Assembly: GCA_019310825.1 (NCBI GenBank)
Contig: JAFDDO010000001.1
Location: 1 to 47,507 of the forward strand
DNA length: 47,507 nt
Direction of reading: 5' to 3'
Source: Deltaproteobacteria bacterium
Lineage (GTDB): Bacteria > Desulfobacterota > Dissulfuribacteria > Dissulfuribacterales > UBA3076
The translations under genes and the position numbers were made by a program. Of this stretch, positions 1 through 8,431 are shown one piece after another; position 1 is the first letter of the stretch, and each line of letters starts with the position of its first letter. The notes beneath the pieces were generated by a model. It was not told the origin of the DNA. It saw only the letters and a list, made by a program, of their open reading frames with translations, and made no database searches.

Positions 1-1866
1 TGTCAGGGAGGCCTCTATTACTGTTGTAGCAGTTTCTTCATCTCGAGTTTCGCCTACCATTATCACATCCGGATCTGCCCTTAAAAAGGCCCTGAGAACC
101 CGGGCAAAGGTCAGGCCAATATGGGGTTTCACCTGCACCTGACGCAATCCCTCCTGCATGATTTCTACAGGATCTTCTACTGTCCAGATTTTTTTCTCAG
201 GCCGATTTATATGGCCAAGTGCAGAATGCAGGGTAGTTGTTTTTCCTGATCCGGTAGGACCAACTGCCAATATCAGCCCATACGGCAATTGCAAAAGCTG
301 TTTTATTTGCTCTAGGTTTTGATCAAGAAGCCCTATGCGATCAATCGGCATGGCATCGGAAGAGGCCAGTAACCTGAGTACGGCATCTTCGTTGCCATCA
401 GTTGTAGGAAGTATGGCTACACGTAATTCCAAGGGCCTACCAGAGCGAGTCTTGAATTTTATTTTTCCGTCTTGAGGCAGGCGTTTTTCGGCAATATCAA
501 GGTTAGACATGATCTTGATTCTGGATATCATGGCCCGCTTGTAGTTATACGGAATGGTCTGATAGCGCATGCAATCGCCATCAATCCTGAAACGGACCAG
601 GGATCCCCGTTTGCCTGCCGAGGATTCAATGTGTATATCAGAGGCCCTGCGTTGGAAGGCATCCTCTATAATTTTATTGGCTATCTGGACTACTACACTA
701 TCAGCTTCTGATGCTAAGCTATCATCCTCCTCTTCCTCTAATTCAGTGTCCTCATCAACCAGATCCAGTTGCTCAAATACGTCATCATCAGATCCTTCTA
801 CGGAATATTTTCCATAGAAATAGTCTATGAATCTGTTGATATCTTCCTTTAGGGAAACTGCAAATTGAAAGTTTTTGGCCTTAAGAACCCTTCTGATATT
901 GTCTGTCTTTGCTAAGTCATGGGGGTTATCCAGTGCAACTATAAGGACCCCTGATTTTTCGCGAATCGGTGCACAAAAATTGGTCCTGAAAAAGTGTTCT
1001 TTGATCCCACGCACACAAGATGGCGTGGTTCCTACTTCCAGTTCGTCAAATTCCACAAAGGGACATCGATAGTATTCGCTAAGGGAGCGGCCGAGTTCTG
1101 TTTTGTCTATGCCAAACTGGTTTAGCAGAATACTTTCTATGGATTGCTTTCCCTGTTTGGCCAGCTCTTTGGTCCTGCCAAGTTGTTCTTCAGAGAGGAG
1201 CTGATTACGAATCAGATAATAGAATCGGCCATACTTCTGAGCGTTCTGGGAAAGGCTCTCAAGCCTTTGTTTGGCGTTTCTAAAAGCAGGATCAAGACGG
1301 ATGATTTGTTCCAGCGCCTCAATGGCCTTGGGCATCGCACCGGTTCGTTCATGGGTAAGTGCCAGTTGATATAGTACATCCAACCTTTCGTCCTTGGAGA
1401 GTTGTGTGTCCTCAAGCGATTCCTCTAAATATTCAAGGGCCTCAAAGGGCATATCCACCTGTAGATATGATTCCCCAATTTTCGATCGAATCACCCCTGG
1501 CCTGTATTCTGCTTCAAGTAAACTTTTTAGTTCTTCTATAGCCTCCGGATGAAAGCCCGCATCTATCAGACCCATACAACTACTGAATTTATTATCCTGA
1601 TATTCTTTAAGGTCTTCAGGTTTAAGATCTTCAGGGCTAGTAGTGAAATCCTTTTCCCCTGATGGGACTGTTCCCATGCCATCAACCTGAAGTTTTTTCA
1701 GGCGGGATTCTATTTCACTATGGAAAGGATGAGATTTATCACCTGTCAGTTCCAGAAGCTCTAAACAAATAAGACGGGCTTCTTCATTAAGACCTTGGCT
1801 ATAATAAAGATCGGCTTCTGCCAACATGGTTTTTAAATTGTCCGAAGTTGAAGCATGATTATTCAT
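1..1866 (-). CDS. GspE/PilB-family (type II/IV secretion) ATPase with N-terminal TPR region; 3' end runs off the window
   Basis: Own minus-strand translation from the ATG at 1866-1864 gives MNNHASTSDNLKTMLAEADLYYSQGLNEEA... This shows TPR-like helices, a T2SSE_N-like segment (YLIRNQLLSEEQLGRTKELAKQ...ILLNQFGI), then ASDIHIE, RFRIDG, LPQDG and Walker A GPTGSGKTT. It is absent from the ORF track because there is no stop inside the window. Confidence 0.85.
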   Translation of the reverse strand, partial: MNNHASTSDNLKTMLAEADLYYSQGLNEEARLICLELLELTGDKSHPFHSEIESRLKKLQVDGMGTVPSGEKDFTTSPEDLKPEDLKEYQDNKFSSCMGLIDAGFHPEAIEELKSLLEAEYRPGVIRSKIGESYLQVDMPFEALEYLEESLEDTQLSKDERLDVLYQLALTHERTGAMPKAIEALEQIIRLDPAFRNAKQRLESLSQNAQKYGRFYYLIRNQLLSEEQLGRTKELAKQGKQSIESILLNQFGIDKTELGRSLSEYYRCPFVEFDELEVGTTPSCVRGIKEHFFRTNFCAPIREKSGVLIVALDNPHDLAKTDNIRRVLKAKNFQFAVSLKEDINRFIDYFYGKYSVEGSDDDVFEQLDLVDEDTELEEEEDDSLASEADSVVVQIANKIIEDAFQRRASDIHIESSAGKRGSLVRFRIDGDCMRYQTIPYNYKRAMISRIKIMSNLDIAEKRLPQDGKIKFKTRSGRPLELRVAILPTTDGNEDAVLRLLASSDAMPIDRIGLLDQNLEQIKQLLQLPYGLILAVGPTGSGKTTTLHSALGHINRPEKKIWTVEDPVEIMQEGLRQVQVKPHIGLTFARVLRAFLRADPDVIMVGETRDEETATTVIEASLT

Positions 1867-3520
1867 TTGTCAGTGTATTTAAAAGGCTTTCCAGCGTTGC
1901 CACGGATATTTGTTTGTCCTCTATCCTCAGGTTACCAACCCATTGTCCATTATTCTTTGCGGACGGTTCCCAGGAACACTCAGGAGTTACAGAAATGGTT
2001 TTTAACGTAGTTTCCAGCATAAGGACCAGTCCTTTATCTTCACGGAATAGGACTAATACAGTCGGATTGTCTGACGGCTGAGAGTGACTGGAAGATGAAA
2101 TCGATTTTTGTAGTACTGGAAATTCGAGTTTTATAAGCTGTGATTCTTTCTGATTCGACAATTTTCCCTGCATCAATGGCTGAATTTTTGTCCATGGCCA
2201 AGCCTTGAGCTTCTTTAATTTAAAAGTTTTCAGCTTATTAAGTCCTTTTTTTGTCCAGCGGGGGGCGGTCCCTGCAAATGCGACATCTTCAGGGACAAAT
2301 GCAACTTGCTTTTGGTCCCATTGGCCAATTACAAGTTCATGCCAAGGGCAGGAAATCCTCACTGAGGGTGTTTCTTCTTTATCAATTTCTATGGTAATGT
2401 CTTCGGCTCGTTGAGCAGCATAATCACGCACACCAGAAGATGGATCGTAATCGCCGGTTAATGCCTTTTCCAATATTTTCTTTTGTTCTTCAATCCTATC
2501 TTTAATATTTTGCTGAAAATGATGTAGCTTTTCCATCCCCTGAGTTTGGGCAAGGAGCTTTTCAACTGGTAAAATGTAACTTATACAGTCATCAAGGATT
2601 TTGATATGGGATTTGACTACACTTACAAGCACCGAGTGCTCAAGGAACTCCGACTCAATGGCCGCTGCCTTTTCTTGTATGTCCGCCTCTAAAATGGAAT
2701 CATTGATCTGTTCCTGTTGATCGGAAAATTTTTCTTTTTGGGAAGTCTTCCGGACTTCATCTTCAAACCCTGGTTCAAGATCATCGACATCTTCAATAAG
2801 GCGTTCCAAAACCGCCTCCTCGGGCACTTCGTGGGCAACTTCAGGCACATCCATGTCTATGGCTGATTCAAGCTCTTTTTTGGCGAATCTAAAGAGTTCC
2901 TCTTTAGCCTTTGGGTCCTGCCCCTCGTTCCAAACAAGGTTTTTGAAAGTGTCAAGGCCTCTCTGCAGAACTTCGGGGCCGGAAGTAGGCATTTTTTCAG
3001 GATGGTCCGCAATCCCTTCAAGGAGACTTATCATAAGATTGAGCAATTCGTGAAGATTTTTGTCTGCCCCTATCTTTGGACTTTCCCGGATTAACTCTAC
3101 CATGTTTTTGGCTGATACTGCTTGTGTCTGAGTGACTTCCCACTCCAGGGTCAATAACAGTTGGTTAAGTTGGCTGAACTGTTGTTCCAAATTGACCTCT
3201 TCAGTCTCTTTCTCCTCAAAATCAGGCTCCCGACCTGAGCCTAATTCCGATATCTTTTTGTCAATGGTATTTTCTATCTGTTCAGCAGGAGCTTCCATCT
3301 CTATGGTATCTGAGAGCTTTATTCCATCAGGCGACTTTTCTTCCTTGCCTACAACCTGAGAGGACTGCCCTTGATCTGTTTTAACTTGCGATAACTCTCT
3401 AACTTCACTAGTTAAAGGATCTATTTCTATCTGTCGTGATGCACTAAATAGTTCGTCAATAGTACTTTCTACGTTTCTAGCGAAGTCTTCGGGATCAGGA
3501 ATTATTTTTGTCTGATCCAT
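1859..3520 (-). CDS. Hypothetical highly acidic 553-aa protein; C-terminal ~150 aa possibly CheW-like
   Basis: Long ORF. Its stop overlaps the downstream ATG (ATGAATAA at 1859-1866). The D/E-rich helical N-terminal two thirds belong to no family I recognise. The C-terminal part (VLVLFREDKGLVLMLE...WVGNLRIEDKQISVATLESLL) resembles the CheW fold pattern by eye only. Confidence 0.55.
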   Translation of the reverse strand: MDQTKIIPDPEDFARNVESTIDELFSASRQIEIDPLTSEVRELSQVKTDQGQSSQVVGKEEKSPDGIKLSDTIEMEAPAEQIENTIDKKISELGSGREPDFEEKETEEVNLEQQFSQLNQLLLTLEWEVTQTQAVSAKNMVELIRESPKIGADKNLHELLNLMISLLEGIADHPEKMPTSGPEVLQRGLDTFKNLVWNEGQDPKAKEELFRFAKKELESAIDMDVPEVAHEVPEEAVLERLIEDVDDLEPGFEDEVRKTSQKEKFSDQQEQINDSILEADIQEKAAAIESEFLEHSVLVSVVKSHIKILDDCISYILPVEKLLAQTQGMEKLHHFQQNIKDRIEEQKKILEKALTGDYDPSSGVRDYAAQRAEDITIEIDKEETPSVRISCPWHELVIGQWDQKQVAFVPEDVAFAGTAPRWTKKGLNKLKTFKLKKLKAWPWTKIQPLMQGKLSNQKESQLIKLEFPVLQKSISSSSHSQPSDNPTVLVLFREDKGLVLMLETTLKTISVTPECSWEPSAKNNGQWVGNLRIEDKQISVATLESLLNTLTNE

Positions 3521-3621
3521 GGCTTTTCTCCTTGAATATTTTATATTTCAACAACTAACCTGACGCAACTATTCACTCCCTGCCAAGGCAGTGTAAACGG
3601 TTACAGCCTGAGAATGTTTCC

Positions 3622-4239
3622 TCAGTGATTTATTGAAAGATGCTTTGTTGCCACATAGTGGATGGTCCTCTTGCTTATTTCTTTCAGGGTTTCAAAGACC
3701 CCTATTCCTTTAATAGCTGCTGCTTCAAAAACTTTTGTATTAAGTTCGCTGTTCAGGTCTACTTCAAGCTCTTCTTTAGTCAGCGTCGGTATGGGTGTCG
3801 GCACAAGATCACATTTGTTGAATTGAAGAACGATTGGGATTTCTTCCGTAGTTAAATTATACTCAAAAAGATTGCGGTGTAGATCTTGGAAACTTTCCCT
3901 GTTCTTTTCACGACGTACTTTAAGACAGTCAGCAACAAAGACCAGACCATCCACACCCTTGAGGACCAGTTTCCTGGTAGCTTCATAAATGACCTGGCCT
4001 GGCACTGTGTAAAGCTGGATTCTTATATCAAAGCCATTTATTTTCCCCAAATTTAAGGGAAGGAGGTCAAAAAAAAGTGTCCTCTCTCCTTTTGTCTCGA
4101 TAGTCAGCATTTTGCTTCGGGCTTGATTATTCATGGCATTATATATGTAGAGCAAATTCGTAGTCTTCCCGCATCGTCCGGGACCGTAGTAAACTATCTT
4201 GCAGTGTATTTCCTTTTTGCTGAGATTTATTAACGCCAT
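3622..4239 (-). CDS. mglA: MglA-like Ras-superfamily small GTPase
   Basis: 205 aa. The N-terminus INLSKKEIHCKIVYYGPGRCGKTTNL matches Myxococcus MglA closely. The MglA-specific G3 motif LYTVPGQ and G4 motif NKCD are present. Confidence 0.85.
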   Translation of the reverse strand: MALINLSKKEIHCKIVYYGPGRCGKTTNLLYIYNAMNNQARSKMLTIETKGERTLFFDLLPLNLGKINGFDIRIQLYTVPGQVIYEATRKLVLKGVDGLVFVADCLKVRREKNRESFQDLHRNLFEYNLTTEEIPIVLQFNKCDLVPTPIPTLTKEELEVDLNSELNTKVFEAAAIKGIGVFETLKEISKRTIHYVATKHLSINH

Positions 4240-4241
4240 AT

Positions 4242-4643
4242 TTAATTATTTTGGCCAAATGCCTTTTCTATGGTTTTTGCCAATTGTGCCACTCTTAGCC
4301 TGACCAAACCCAGAGAGACATTCTCGCCAAATATTGTTACAAGAATTAAATCAGTACTTATTCGTGCAAAGTGTATGCTATCTTTTTTCCCTTTGTGAAA
4401 CAGGAGTGCAAAATCGTCTTCTCCTATCAGCTTTGCAATTTGTGAAGTGACACCAAAGTTGGCTGCTGCCAGCGCAGCAAGAGAAGTCGTGTCAAGATCG
4501 CAGGTTCTATGCCCGCAAGCAGCCACAACATTGCCAGCTTCGTCAATCAGAATAACAGTATTAACGCCTGCTTTAATAAGGACATTCTCTATCTGTATTT
4601 TGGTCTCTTCCAGGACCGATGTAGTCAACACTAAATCAGCCAT
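4242..4643 (-). CDS. mglB: MglB-like Roadblock/LC7 domain protein (putative GAP partner of MglA)
   Basis: Small protein 2 nt upstream of mglA with a Roadblock-type pattern (VNTVILIDEAGNVVAACG...LAALAAANFG...LILVTIF). The start is taken at the internal MADLV; the ORF track start is at 4673. Confidence 0.7.
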   Translation of the reverse strand: MADLVLTTSVLEETKIQIENVLIKAGVNTVILIDEAGNVVAACGHRTCDLDTTSLAALAAANFGVTSQIAKLIGEDDFALLFHKGKKDSIHFARISTDLILVTIFGENVSLGLVRLRVAQLAKTIEKAFGQNN

Positions 4644-5387
4644 GGTTAATTTCCCCAAAAAAAGAAAAGCCATTCTGTATCAAAGACACATAAATTCTCA
4701 ATTGAGACTCCTGGATTTAAGGTTCTAATGCCTTTATCGACCAGATCATTTAGGATGTTAAGGATTTCTGTGGCGGGTCCGTTTTTTCTGATCGTAGAAA
4801 TTGCATCTGAGTATTACCTTGCATTAAACTCAGCGGTCAACAAATAACTTATAGCCAGATCGAGGTGTTGGATTCCAGATAGAGCCAGGGATTACTATAA
4901 ATCAATTTGTTCAGAAAATTTGGCATAATTTTGGTCTGGATAGACGCCTTGAACATCCTAAAACGACCATTTTGCCTCTTGTCCCTGACCGATTTTCGTC
5001 AAAAAAAGTTTATTTTAACTGCACGAAATGCCTAATTGCATGGTTTGGACAAACGCGTAATGCTCCCGTTTTGATCCAGGTCCAATGAGATAGATATGGT
5101 TGAGACTAGTAGATCTGCTTCCTGGGCTTGTTGGTGATGATAAGGTGACCGAACCAGGAAAATCATGAGGCTCTCGCAAAATTCTGTCTTCGGTCCGATG
5201 GATGCGTTGCTCGTTGTCAAAAGTGCTCACGTATTCAAATACACTCCACGTTTTTTCCAGAATGAGTGTGTACCCCTCTTCAATTATCAAGAAATTGAAC
5301 TTAATGGTCGATAACAAATTAAGATCAGAAAGAATATCTCATGGAATTTTTTATTTGATGCTTGAAGTTAATGTCAAGGGAGTCAAA

Positions 5388-6428
5388 ATGATTGAGCAAA
5401 CTAAAAGCAGAGAAGGGTTGATTTTCAAGACTGTAGAAAGCCGTTTAACTTCAGGACGATTTCAGCATTGGAAGACAAAATTAATGCGCCAGGCTATGGA
5501 GGCGAACAAAGAGCTGTGGCTGATCTTGTCCATGTTTTCTATCATTGGCATCATGAATTATCTATTGACCGCCCAGCAGATGTTGCTGCAGCTATACGTC
5601 ATGCCTACCATTTTTTCCGCCTATTTTTTCGGACGTCGCCATGCCGTTCTGACCGCAGTGGCCAGCATCTTACTAGTAGGTCTTGTTTTATACTTCAACT
5701 CAGATCTGTTCAAAGAGATGGAACAATTCAATTCAGTAAGCGGCCAATGGTATGAAATCATGGCTTGGGCCAGTATGTTAGTGATCATTGCATATTCAAT
5801 GGGTACTCTCTATGAACGTCAGGCATCACAGATGAGTGAACTCCAGAAGACCTACCGGGGTCTTCTGGTAATTCTGCGCCATTTCATTTCCAAAGATAAG
5901 TATACCGAAAACCATTGTTATCGCGTTTCGATCTATTCAGCTAAAATCGCTACCTACCTCGGACTCGCTCCTCCACAGATTGAAACGGTTCGTGCCGCTG
6001 CCTTGCTCCATGACATTGGAAAAATCGATATCGGCCGGGAAATTCTTTACAAGGCAGCGCAATTAACCAGGGAAGAGCGTGAAACAATGAAAAAACATGT
6101 GGAACTGGGTGCTGATATTCTGGATTTAGTAGAAGCTCCCCTAGGCAAGATTATTCCTATCATTTTGGCTCACCACGACAAACATGATGGATCGGGCTAT
6201 CATCCGATCAACGGAGAGAAGATCCCTATAGAGGCTAAAGTCCTCTCCGTGGCAGATGTATATGATGCCCTGGTAAGCGATCGTCCTTACCGCAAGGCAT
6301 TATCTCCATTTGAAGCCAAGGAAATCATCATTAAAGGTTCGGGAAAGGATTTTGATCCCAAAGTCGTCGATGCTTTCATCGGAGTTTTCCAAAATGGAGA
6401 AATGGAAATTCCAAACCTGATGATTTAG
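5388..6428 (+). CDS. Membrane-anchored HD-GYP domain protein (putative c-di-GMP phosphodiesterase)
   Basis: Contains HCYRVS, LLHDIGKI and HHDKHDGSGYHP motifs, preceded by 3-4 hydrophobic helices. The ATG at 5388 follows AAGGGA with about 8-nt spacing. The ORF track start at 5202 is probably too far upstream. Confidence 0.8.
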   Translation: MIEQTKSREGLIFKTVESRLTSGRFQHWKTKLMRQAMEANKELWLILSMFSIIGIMNYLLTAQQMLLQLYVMPTIFSAYFFGRRHAVLTAVASILLVGLVLYFNSDLFKEMEQFNSVSGQWYEIMAWASMLVIIAYSMGTLYERQASQMSELQKTYRGLLVILRHFISKDKYTENHCYRVSIYSAKIATYLGLAPPQIETVRAAALLHDIGKIDIGREILYKAAQLTREERETMKKHVELGADILDLVEAPLGKIIPIILAHHDKHDGSGYHPINGEKIPIEAKVLSVADVYDALVSDRPYRKALSPFEAKEIIIKGSGKDFDPKVVDAFIGVFQNGEMEIPNLMI

Positions 6429-6486: not shown

Positions 6487-8431
6487 TTATATCAGGAACT
6501 CTTCCACCTTCCTGGCAATGCTTTCGGCATCAAGGCCCTGAAGGCGATACAAGTCATCTGGCTTGCCCGAAGAACTATAGTGTGTCACTCCTATAGTGAG
6601 GAGCTGCTGGTGTGCGCCTGCCCTCACAAGTTCCTGCGCCACCACGGCCCCCAAGCCTGTGTGGGCCACATGGTCTTCAACCGTTATGAGGGGCCCTTTC
6701 TTAGCTGCCTCAAGTATTGATTCTCTGTCTATGGGCTTGAGAGAAGCCATGTTGAGTACCCCTGTTGACAGGCCCTCTGAGTCGAGAATTGACCATGATT
6801 CGAGAACCTGGGATGTGGCTGAGCCATAGGTAAGAAAAGTGGCCTTATCTCCCTGTCTCAACCAATCTGCCCGCCCAGGCTGAAATACATAGTCCGCATC
6901 GTAAAATGGTTTTCCATCCTTTGTGGTAATAATTGACAATTTAGACCTTCCCATACCCACAAAAACATTGCCCGGATTGGTAGCCACATAACGGACTATC
7001 CTGTCGGTTTGATTTGGATCTGCCGGCATAAATATGGAGAAGCCAAAAAGGTTATTGAAAAGTCCCACATAGTCAAGACTTTGATGGGTGGGGCCATCTT
7101 CTCCCACGTCTAGTCCCAGATGAGTAGATACAATTTTAAGATGGGTTTCATTGAGGTCATTTAAGCGGTGCTGGTTGTAAGTCTCCGCTACAGCAAAGAC
7201 ACCAAAGGTACTGAAGAAGGTAGCTAATCCCTCCCTGCTCACTGCTCCAGCACAGGTAGCTGCGTGGTGCTCTTGTATGCCTGTCTCTATGAAGGTGCTT
7301 GGAGAAACGCTGTGAAACCCTTGCATCTTTACTGATCCTTCCAGATCACAGCTAAATCCTACAATCTTTGGGGCAGAACCAGGAACATTGTTCCTTTGGG
7401 CTAGATCCTTTAATGCTGCGCCGTATGCAGAGCGGCAGTCTGTTTTGTTTTCAGTACCGTAGACAATAGGTTTTCCAGAATCAATAGATGGATAATTGAT
7501 TTCTGGTTTTTTGTTAGTGCCCTTTATTTTGTGTTCAGTCCTGTTCTTTGACCACATCTCAAGTAGGCCCTGATCTTGTCCTAGTTCTCTCAAAGCTGCA
7601 TGGGCATCATCCTTTGGCAGCGGAGCCCCATGATACTTTGCCTTATCCTCCATAAAGGAGATACCTTTTCCCATGACGGTACGCGTGATCAGAACAGTGG
7701 GGCGGTTGGGTACAAGGCCGGCATGTGTCCACGCCCTCTTCAGGGCCTTGAATATGGTCTGAAAATCATGGCCGTCCGGCACATACAATACATTCCAGCC
7801 TGCGGCAGAATATTCATCCCTTACACGGACAGGCATGACATCTTCAGTAGAACCTCCAATCTGGAGATGATTCCTGTCGACCACACCGATCAGGTTCCCT
7901 TGTCCGAACTTTGTTGAAAAACGTCTGGCTTCAGCTATCTGTCCCTTCTGCTGTTCTCCGTCGCCCATGAGGACGATTGTTTTGCCCGGCCGATCAAGAA
8001 GATTTTGGGCAAGACATATGCCTGTACCTACGGAAAGACCCTGGCCAAGATTTCCAGTATTCCACTCAATTCCCGGCATGGTTCGTTCTACATGGCCGGC
8101 ACAGGGTGAACCGGCGCGACGAAACTCGGTAAGGAAATCTTCCTCTGAGAAATAACCAAATTCAGCAAGTACGCTGTAGACACACGGAGAGATATGCCCG
8201 ATGCTGGTCACGGTCTGGCCAGAGGGGTTCTGCCGGACGATGTTTGATTACGCTGTAAAGGACAATCAGGGTGTGCAGAGAAGAAAGAGAGCCACCGGGA
8301 TGACCGCTTTTTGCAAGGGTAGTAGAAAGAATAATGCGCGTGGCACATCTGTTCCACATGGCCTGTAGCTCAGAAATCTGTTCCTGTGTAAGTTCGTTTT
8401 GTTTTTCTATATCTATGTAAAACATAGGCAT
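6487..8431 (-). pseudogene. tkt: Transketolase, reading frame interrupted near 8205-8215
   Basis: ORF 8162-8431 encodes the transketolase N-terminus (SGHPGGSLSS...EPLWPDRD). ORF 6487-8211 continues in another frame with VTSIGHISPCVYSVLAEFGYF...GHVE...GNLGQG...GDGEQQKG and the full Pyr and C-terminal domains. The usual DR(F)V residues at the junction are missing. Confidence 0.7.

Follow-up and report, generated by a model that had tools for sequence, protein, structure and literature searches.

A conserved operon of Desulfobacterota encoding MglB, MglA, a candidate scaffold protein with a predicted CheW-like domain, and a TPR-fused PilB-like ATPase

In Myxococcus xanthus, the route from the GTP-bound form of the small GTPase MglA to the type IV pilus motor has been pieced together genetically, by way of SgmX, FrzS and SopA, and its contact with the ATPase PilB is still indirect. 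MglA-GTP binds SgmX, a tetratricopeptide repeat (TPR) protein which PilB needs for its polar position (PMC7519303, PMC7668184), and MglB keeps the other pole free of pili (PMC7519303, PMC7668184, PMC11580455). MglA of Bdellovibrio binds a TPR protein as well, Bd2492 (PMC3983030), and in cyanobacteria, PATAN domains bind both PilC and the N-terminal part of PilB1 (10.1101/2021.06.11.447907). Here we describe an operon from a Deltaproteobacteria bacterium of the order Dissulfuribacterales that encodes MglB, MglA, a 553-aa protein (p553), and an ATPase of the PilB/GspE family with an N-terminal TPR extension (TPR-ATPase). It lies at the left end of a 47,507-nt stretch of DNA, hereafter the window, which is the entire contig C41 (JAFDDO010000001.1) of a 235-contig, 2.16-Mb assembly (GCA_019310825.1; 92% complete), a fragmented metagenome-assembled genome with strain variation.

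A survey of MglA neighbourhoods by Wuichet and Sogaard-Andersen contains links to PATAN, conservon and HTH-regulator genes, a link to PilB/GspE being absent (PMC4316618), and full-text literature searches returned no paper describing this operon. The Myxococcus pathway is already known; what is new is the form it takes here, an MglA-TPR-PilB pathway in which the adaptor is fused and the scaffold belongs to a new family. Taking all evidence together, we consider it probable that the MglA/MglB switch controls or positions the TPR-fused PilB-type motor, through contacts which we infer from the arguments given below.

An earlier note on this DNA, made from the sequence alone, had described four tightly packed genes on one strand, and all four open reading frames (ORFs) indeed lie on the minus strand between positions 1 and 4673. 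The 2-nt gap that it reported between the mglB stop and the mglA start is present (ATTAAATATG), as is the stop/start overlap of the p553 and ATPase genes (ATGAATAA, 1859–1866). The spacer between mglA and the p553 gene (3521..3621, minus strand) comprises 101 nt, with AAGGAG located 8 nt upstream of the ATG. A sequence scan of its coding (minus) strand found no terminator-like hairpin; promoter and terminator scans of the region were uninformative, as the site counts equalled those expected by chance.

The four-gene order, whose conservation the earlier note had put forward for checking, is widely kept. Species loci were retrieved by a pattern-based search that used the p553 alignment, and metagenome loci by exact-protein look-up; ORF starts of the relatives were placed at the first ATG. 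The 65 species-level loci all belong to Desulfobacterota/Thermodesulfobacteriota, with Seep-SRB2, Dissulfuribacterales, Desulfobulbia, Desulfurivibrionaceae, Thermodesulfatator and Thermodesulfobacteriaceae as carriers, and five further loci come from metagenomes. In every recovered locus (65 species and 5 metagenome loci), MglB, MglA, p553 and the ATPase are encoded in this order and on a single strand as far as the contig reaches; 53 of the 65 species loci contain MglA, p553 and the ATPase together, the others being truncated by contig ends. Median intergenic gaps are 3, 99 and 15 nt, and the order is unchanged among loci whose p553 proteins share as little as 23–30% identity. Such an arrangement, with order and strand repeated in each related locus that has enough contig, is far beyond chance. 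Judged from the sequences, mglB-mglA-p553-pilB(TPR) is one conserved operon, the genes of which are presumably co-transcribed, and a dedicated switch from MglAB to the ATPase is the most economical reading.

MglA as such is widespread, occurring in 229 of 401 genomes of an even phylum sample, and is mostly unlinked to the p553 domain, which was found in 22 of the 401, including 13 of the 14 genomes of the window's own order. These counts, together with the room for an internal promoter in the 101-nt gap between mglA and the p553 gene, would fit a synteny that was inherited without direct coupling, with MglAB serving general polarity or gliding and standing upstream of an unrelated ATPase operon by chance. 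We regard such a coincidence as very improbable: the order persists across orders and classes despite p553 identities of about 25% and completely reshuffled flanks, the module-linked MglAs form a distinct group with at least 70% identity to the window MglA, the mglA gene of the operon is the sole copy in the source genome, and expanded variants insert signalling genes within the operon instead of splitting it.

The mglA gene (3622..4239, minus strand) codes for a Ras-like GTPase of 205 aa (Pfam Arf/Ras). A phmmer search against the PDB retrieved MglA of M. xanthus (3e-58, 200 bits) and of Thermus thermophilus (7e-56, 192 bits), followed by Arf6 with only 26 bits; identity to M. xanthus MglA is 54% over 188 columns. 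The TVPGQ motif aligns with TVPGQ of M. xanthus MglA, with Thr for Asp in the G3 motif and the catalytic Gln kept; replacement of DxxGQ by TxxGQ in G3 is given as a hallmark of MglA in PMC3000849. The P-loop GPGRCGKTT and NKCD are likewise kept, and the switch-I arginine is present in GERTLFFD, aligned to TDRTLFFD of M. xanthus; this residue acts as an intrinsic arginine finger in MglA (PMC4316618, PMC3199381). All motifs quoted in the earlier note, namely the three of the GTPase (GPGRCGKTT, TVPGQ, NKCD) and GPTGSGKTT of the ATPase, can be read in the sequence, and with its 200-bit match and its family hallmarks the 205-aa protein falls within the MglA family, not outside it. The mglB gene (4242..4673, minus strand) is a 143-aa ORF matching Pfam Robl_LC7 (1e-11); since the MglB proteins of relatives have 128–134 aa, translation probably begins at the second ATG, at 4643, which would yield 133 aa. 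The description of this partner as Roadblock/LC7-like was borne out by its best solved-structure matches, to M. xanthus MglB (3e-21), while the NCBIfam MglB equivalog model scored 1.5e-14 and 54 bits, under its cut-off of 200. By these sequence criteria, the GTPase and its partner are genuine members of their families, MglA and MglB, and MglB is the probable GTPase-activating protein of MglA.

The window contains the first 622 codons of the ATPase gene (1..1866, minus strand), which is open at the contig end; joined with 165 codons from contig C212, it codes for 787 aa, orthologues having 764–849 aa. Pfam TPR_12/TPR_2, MshEN (2.7e-13) and T2SSE (5e-74) domains were identified, and a full-length orthologue aligned with its residues 218–781 over the entire M. 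xanthus PilB (3jc8; 2e-113), and also with Geobacter PilB, Thermus PilF and Vibrio GspE, so that the earlier description, of a PilB/GspE-family ATPase extended by TPRs at its N-terminus, stands. This extension of about 215 aa (1222..1866, minus strand; aa 1–215, with TPR_12/TPR_2 at aa 127–194) is absent from canonical PilB and GspE, and its mean column conservation is 0.56. A search with the TPR region matched only TPR-MshEN-T2SSE proteins of 770–795 aa plus two generic TPR proteins. Homologues of the TPR-ATPase are annotated as 'T2SS/T4P family ATPase' (type II secretion system, T2SS; type IV pilus, T4P) and include proteins of the cultured Desulfurivibrio dismutans and Dissulfurimicrobium hydrothermale. 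The Walker A motif GPTGSGKTT (235..261, minus strand) is invariant in 21 orthologues, and the Asp box, Walker B (DPDxIMxGExRD), His box and Cys4 zinc site, which are partly encoded on C212, are invariant or near-invariant in the same set.

MshEN domains bind cyclic di-GMP (c-di-GMP) through a tandem consensus, RLGxx(L/V/I)(L/V/I)xxG(L/V/I/F)(L/V/I)xxxxLxxxLxxQ. In the MshEN-type N1 domain of the TPR-ATPase (811..1071, minus strand; aa 266–352), the first motif reads RFYYLIRNQLLSEEQL and lacks the Gly positions, as compared by eye with this consensus; the c-di-GMP motif thus looks degenerate in sequence. In a maximum-likelihood tree, obtained by a quick search with the references gathered in the course of this analysis, the TPR-ATPases formed a single clade (Shimodaira-Hasegawa-like approximate likelihood ratio support 99), apart from the GspE+GspF type, the PilB equivalog of strain M19, and two types of orphan ATPases encoded on contigs C27 and C104 of the source genome. 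An identity as the GspE of a T2SS was ruled out, as the TPR-ATPases are a distinct clade and the genome has a separate GspE-GspF-secretin cluster on C141.

The third member of the operon, p553 (1859..3520, minus strand), is acidic, as had been noted before (isoelectric point 4.69; 105 D+E versus 64 K+R). The window copy had no match in Pfam or NCBIfam, and Pfam gave none for 27 family members even at E-values up to 5. The family alignment comprises four conserved blocks with variable acidic linkers between them. According to the AlphaFold model, an N-terminal helix and hairpin (IDELF...IEIDPLT) are followed by a disordered acidic linker, a helical bundle (aa 108–221), a second linker, a helical hairpin (aa 291–355) and a beta-rich C-terminal domain (aa 388–553). 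When the latter (1862..2368, minus strand; aa 385–553) was modelled on its own, the predicted local distance difference test score (pLDDT) was 85.7 and the predicted template modelling (TM) score 0.82, and the top 18 Foldseek matches in the PDB were all CheW or CheA-P5 domains (E 2e-5 to 1e-2, TM 0.45–0.65, probability 0.99–1.00), with a sharp drop beyond. An hhalign comparison with three CheW proteins gave 79% probability at E 1.6e-5, the second half of the domain being aligned. The model thus assigns the C-terminal domain of p553 to the CheW/CheA-P5 fold with two beta-barrel subdomains. Out of 1.84 billion proteins, an HMMER profile of the domain retrieved only 103 cluster representatives, nearly all of which have the domain at the C-terminus; most are about 450–830 aa long, and the ten weakest matches contain no Pfam domain. 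On the basis of these searches, the p553 family is rare and unmodelled.

The helical bundle of p553 (2858..3199, minus strand; pLDDT about 90), which contains an invariant LTLEWE motif, matched CheA P1/Hpt domains in Foldseek at E-values of 0.035–0.6, and designed four-helix bundles matched equally well. The family alignment of the bundle contains no conserved His, and an identity as a true Hpt domain is disfavoured on both grounds. Pfam detected no HATPase_c (P4 kinase) domain in p553. Going by the predicted structures, a 'kinase-less CheA-like' protein is a possibility. Both the CheW-like domain of p553 and the Che-like and PATAN surroundings of the module had been overlooked in the earlier note, as had the probable role of the ATPase in type IVa pilus extension, to which we turn next.

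As to the machine which the TPR-ATPase may drive, the parts of a pilus machine are scattered over the source genome, away from the operon, with an orphan PilC on C223, PilM/N/O/P/Q on C145 and C116, and a PilT/PilU pair on C43. The genome further encodes a T2SS-like cluster that includes a GspE and a GspF of its own (C141), and two other orphan PilB-like ATPases. One of these (C27:1252–2988) is a TfpB-like protein of 579 aa that is conserved in relatives, and the other (C104:4995–7376) has 794 aa with several N-terminal MshEN-like repeats; neither is adjoined by a platform gene. PilT and PilU scored above the curated cut-off in all 22 of the 22 module-bearing genomes sampled. In the closed genomes G047, G391 and G114, we counted two, three and four PilB-like ATPases and two, three and three platform proteins, respectively; the elimination argument drawn from this census depends on a threshold of 1e-60 against the PilB model. 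Every non-TPR ATPase of G047 and G391 adjoins its own platform gene in a T2SS- or Msh-like cluster with its own secretin, which leaves as the unpaired remainder one orphan PilC, a separate PilM-N-O cluster, PilT/PilU and the TPR-ATPase. The orphan PilC proteins of the two genomes match PilC of the source genome at 6e-136 and 5e-139. Being the sole unpaired ATPase left, the TPR-ATPase would power type IVa pilus extension in G047 and G391. By this elimination, and by orthology in the source genome, we rate its role as type IVa pilus extension motor at somewhat better than an even chance.

Several observations weigh against this assignment or against the coupling of switch and motor more generally. 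The TPR-ATPase adjoins pilC in no locus. The source genome and G114 hold one or two more orphan PilB-like ATPases, of the C27 and C104 types, so the elimination is not exclusive there. Among NCBIfam models, a full-length orthologue of the TPR-ATPase matched PilB (TIGR02538) first, with 504 bits, below the equivalog cut-off of 675.65, which is a strict one that was reached in none of 14 control genomes and in one of nine genomes of relatives; GspE came second with 485 bits, below its cut-off of 630. The TPR-ATPase is therefore not a certified PilB equivalog. One word-based search of limited reach detected no specific similarity of the TPR region to SgmX. With regard to p553, its domain profile retrieved no CheW proteins and delineated a closed family, and Pfam CheW (PF01584) went unmatched, so that the CheW link draws on the fold and on the one hhalign match. 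Finally, the source genome has lost the neighbouring Che and Hpt genes.

Some of these points would suit a different division of labour, which we consider unlikely, yet deserving of attention: the TfpB-like C27 or the multi-MshEN C104 ATPase would extend the pili, and the TPR-ATPase, placed in the cell by MglA, would be a hexameric ATPase with an accessory or regulatory role, or else would drive a machine that has escaped recognition. The source genome has three orphan PilB-like ATPases versus one orphan PilC, the C27 type and the TPR-ATPase score alike with the PilB model, at 504 bits each, and also with Geobacter PilB, the TPR-ATPase stays below the PilB equivalog cut-off, and pilC, pilin and secretin genes occur in no module locus. 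However, G047 and G391 lack both the C27 and the C104 types, yet have kept PilC, PilMNO and PilT/PilU, with the TPR-ATPase as sole unpaired ATPase. Moreover, the TPR-ATPase is the nearest of the source paralogues to M. xanthus PilB (383 bits versus 342 and 331), and its catalytic and zinc-site motifs are all intact.

For the operon, the following mechanism is proposed. The motor's own TPR domain would serve as docking site for MglA-GTP, and this docking would recruit or activate the ATPase at the base of a type IVa pilus composed of the orphan PilC, PilMNOPQ and PilT/PilU. MglB would return MglA to the GDP form and the motor would be off, for example at the opposite pole. As a scaffold, p553 would tie switch and motor to a signalling input or a polar landmark by means of its CheW-like and helical domains; depending on the lineage, the input might come from a Che-like pathway, from PATAN regulators or from c-di-GMP enzymes. 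Since adaptor and motor are one protein and since switch, scaffold and motor are co-encoded, the contact from TPR to PilB would be direct (a 'Rosetta-stone' argument). Direct binding of MglA-GTP to the TPR domain, suggested by analogy with the TPR partners of other MglAs, we put slightly short of even, and transmission of chemosensory input by p553 is a more tentative proposal again. The combined picture, in which the TPR-ATPase is the sole type IVa pilus extension motor, MglA-GTP binds its TPR domain, and p553 is a kinase-less descendant of a scaffold of chemosensory arrays and couples sensory pathway, switch and motor, is doubtful as a whole; here the P1-like bundle, the P3-like hairpin and the P5/CheW-like domain of p553 would provide the link to a Che-like/PATAN pathway.

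TPR domains commonly bind short peptides, and p553 itself, whose two long linkers, acidic and disordered, and short conserved motifs are typical of scaffolds, is linked to mglA as strictly as the ATPase. In M. xanthus, the path from MglA to PilB requires extra scaffolds with folded domains between disordered regions, such as SopA (PMC11580455). It is conceivable on these grounds, if rather improbable in our estimate, that p553 is the effector or regulator of MglA, either as a landmark of the RomR/RomX or SopA/FrzS kind or as a guanine nucleotide exchange factor (GEF), and that the TPR domain binds p553, for instance at the conserved IEIDPLT peptide of its N-terminus, or some other partner, MglA acting on the motor indirectly. 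Foldseek found no GEF-like or Roadblock/longin fold in p553, and those MglA effectors for which an action on PilB has been published are TPR proteins; in most respects, such a role of p553 is compatible with the docking mechanism proposed above.

The M. xanthus system of MglA/MglB, SgmX and PilB with FrzS, SopA and Frz (PMC7519303, PMC7668184, PMC11580455, PMC3441718) resembles the operon in having the same switch proteins, a TPR module between the switch and a PilB-type ATPase, scaffolds with linker-separated domains, and chemosensory input, for which genes are found nearby here. In contrast, SgmX is a separate protein of 1,060 aa, whereas the TPR domain is fused to the ATPase in the Desulfobacterota; the Myxococcus genes are scattered, whereas the four genes described here form one operon; and p553 belongs to an unrelated, unmodelled scaffold family with a CheW-like domain. 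The MglA-Bd2492-RomR hub of Bdellovibrio bacteriovorus likewise has MglA bound to a TPR protein at the piliated pole, with a link to c-di-GMP receptors (PMC3983030); however, it lacks MglB, and its TPR protein is encoded with tamAB and is not fused to an ATPase. The PATAN-REC (PatA-type) proteins of cyanobacteria are chemosensory-derived regulators acting on the N-terminal part of the extension ATPase, and PATAN genes flank the module in many relatives, as PATAN-REC-CheB-like, REC-PATAN or PATAN-only forms; MglA and MglB are absent from the cyanobacterial systems, and no PATAN gene stands beside the operon in the source genome. With CheW and CheA P5, the C-terminal domain of p553 shares the predicted double beta-barrel fold, but it has an insertion of 40–50 residues with an invariant LKxWPW, and p553 differs from CheW and CheA in its helical domains and acidic linkers and in lacking a P4 kinase domain and a conserved phospho-acceptor His.

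The flanks of the module are not conserved overall but repeatedly contain sensory genes. About 23 loci have a divergent upstream set encoding HDOD, three REC-CheB-like proteins, CheY and CheA, a few of them also with MCP-CheW (MCP, methyl-accepting chemotaxis protein) downstream, and one of the three REC-CheB-like proteins carries an N-terminal PATAN/DUF4388 domain. The HDOD gene is located about 1 kb upstream of the module in 22 loci. Examples of the REC-CheB_methylesterase cluster are L011:1054–8617 and L093:13601–18999; CheR is absent from these clusters, and there is usually no MCP nearby. Loci of the Desulfobulbia type have REC-PATAN, or PilZ and a PATAN protein, directly downstream on the same strand; in strain M19, a PilZ gene directly follows the ATPase gene (L070:11214–11579). 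An expanded operon with inserted signalling genes is present in the closed genome G047, from another family (L090; G047:C1:123000–142000), in the order MglB, MglA, an unknown protein of 364 aa, PATAN, PATAN-HTH, Cache-HAMP without output domain, a c3-type multihaem cytochrome, the p553-like protein, the TPR-ATPase and, last, an unknown protein of 589 aa. A convergent T2SS/T4P-like cluster adjoins the module in one relative but is not a general feature.

Divergent from the operon in the window lies a gene for an HD-GYP-type (HD_5) membrane protein (5202..6428, plus strand; Pfam HD_5 3e-29, weak MASE1). The first divergent position upstream of mglB is nearly always occupied by a gene of the HD superfamily, HD-GYP here and HDOD in most lineages, which suggests a conserved functional tie of this gene to the module, possibly via c-di-GMP. 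Between it and the operon are the last 34 codons of an Hpt gene (5064..5165, plus strand), identified by a tblastn match of 82% to the C-terminus of a 266-aa protein of L019; the first approximately 230 codons are gone in the window, and the gene is intact in L019 and L027 (Pfam Hpt). Within Seep-SRB2, a stepwise loss can be traced from REC-CheB-like, Hpt and HD-GYP (L027) via Hpt and HD-GYP (L019) to HD-GYP only (window).

The left end of the window overlaps another contig of the same assembly: positions 1–291 correspond to C212:4513–4803 over 291 nt, with 10 mismatches and 3 amino-acid changes, which suggests that two strain variants of the ATPase gene were present in the sample. It looks as if the assembly broke inside the ATPase gene because of this heterogeneity. 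Contig C212 continues with the C-terminus of the ATPase and, past the stop codon, with convergent LigT, CinA, PgpA and LarC-like genes; LigT-CinA occupy the same downstream position in the loci of eight relatives, and the full row LigT-CinA-PgpA-LarC occurs in one relative. The expectation of the earlier note that the rest of a pilus or secretion machine lies left of the window did not hold, since the contig stops inside the ATPase gene and the C212 continuation carries housekeeping genes; with LigT-CinA-type genes at this place in C212 and in the relatives, nothing related to pili or secretion is located there, and no PilC, pilin or secretin gene was found as a member of the module in any of the relatives' loci recovered. 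Further into the window, a transketolase gene (6487–8431, minus strand) is split into an 89-aa ORF (8431–8162) and a 574-aa ORF (8211–6487) which overlap in different frames; the relatives L013 and L019 have a single intact gene (649–657 aa), and the split is either a frameshift or an assembly error.

The module represents a minimal four-protein system for reconstitution, in which the GTPase cycle, TPR binding and ATPase stimulation could be followed, and the p553 family may connect chemosensory signalling with polarity GTPases. If the combined picture of sensory pathway, switch and motor were true, a 'sensor - small GTPase - motor' chain would be wholly encoded at one locus. Cultured carriers are available in Desulfurivibrio dismutans, Dissulfurimicrobium hydrothermale and strain M19. 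Among the organisms which harbor the module are Seep-SRB2, partners in anaerobic methane oxidation, as well as sulfur disproportionators and Desulfobulbia, for all of which pili matter in aggregation and, possibly, in cell-to-cell contact.

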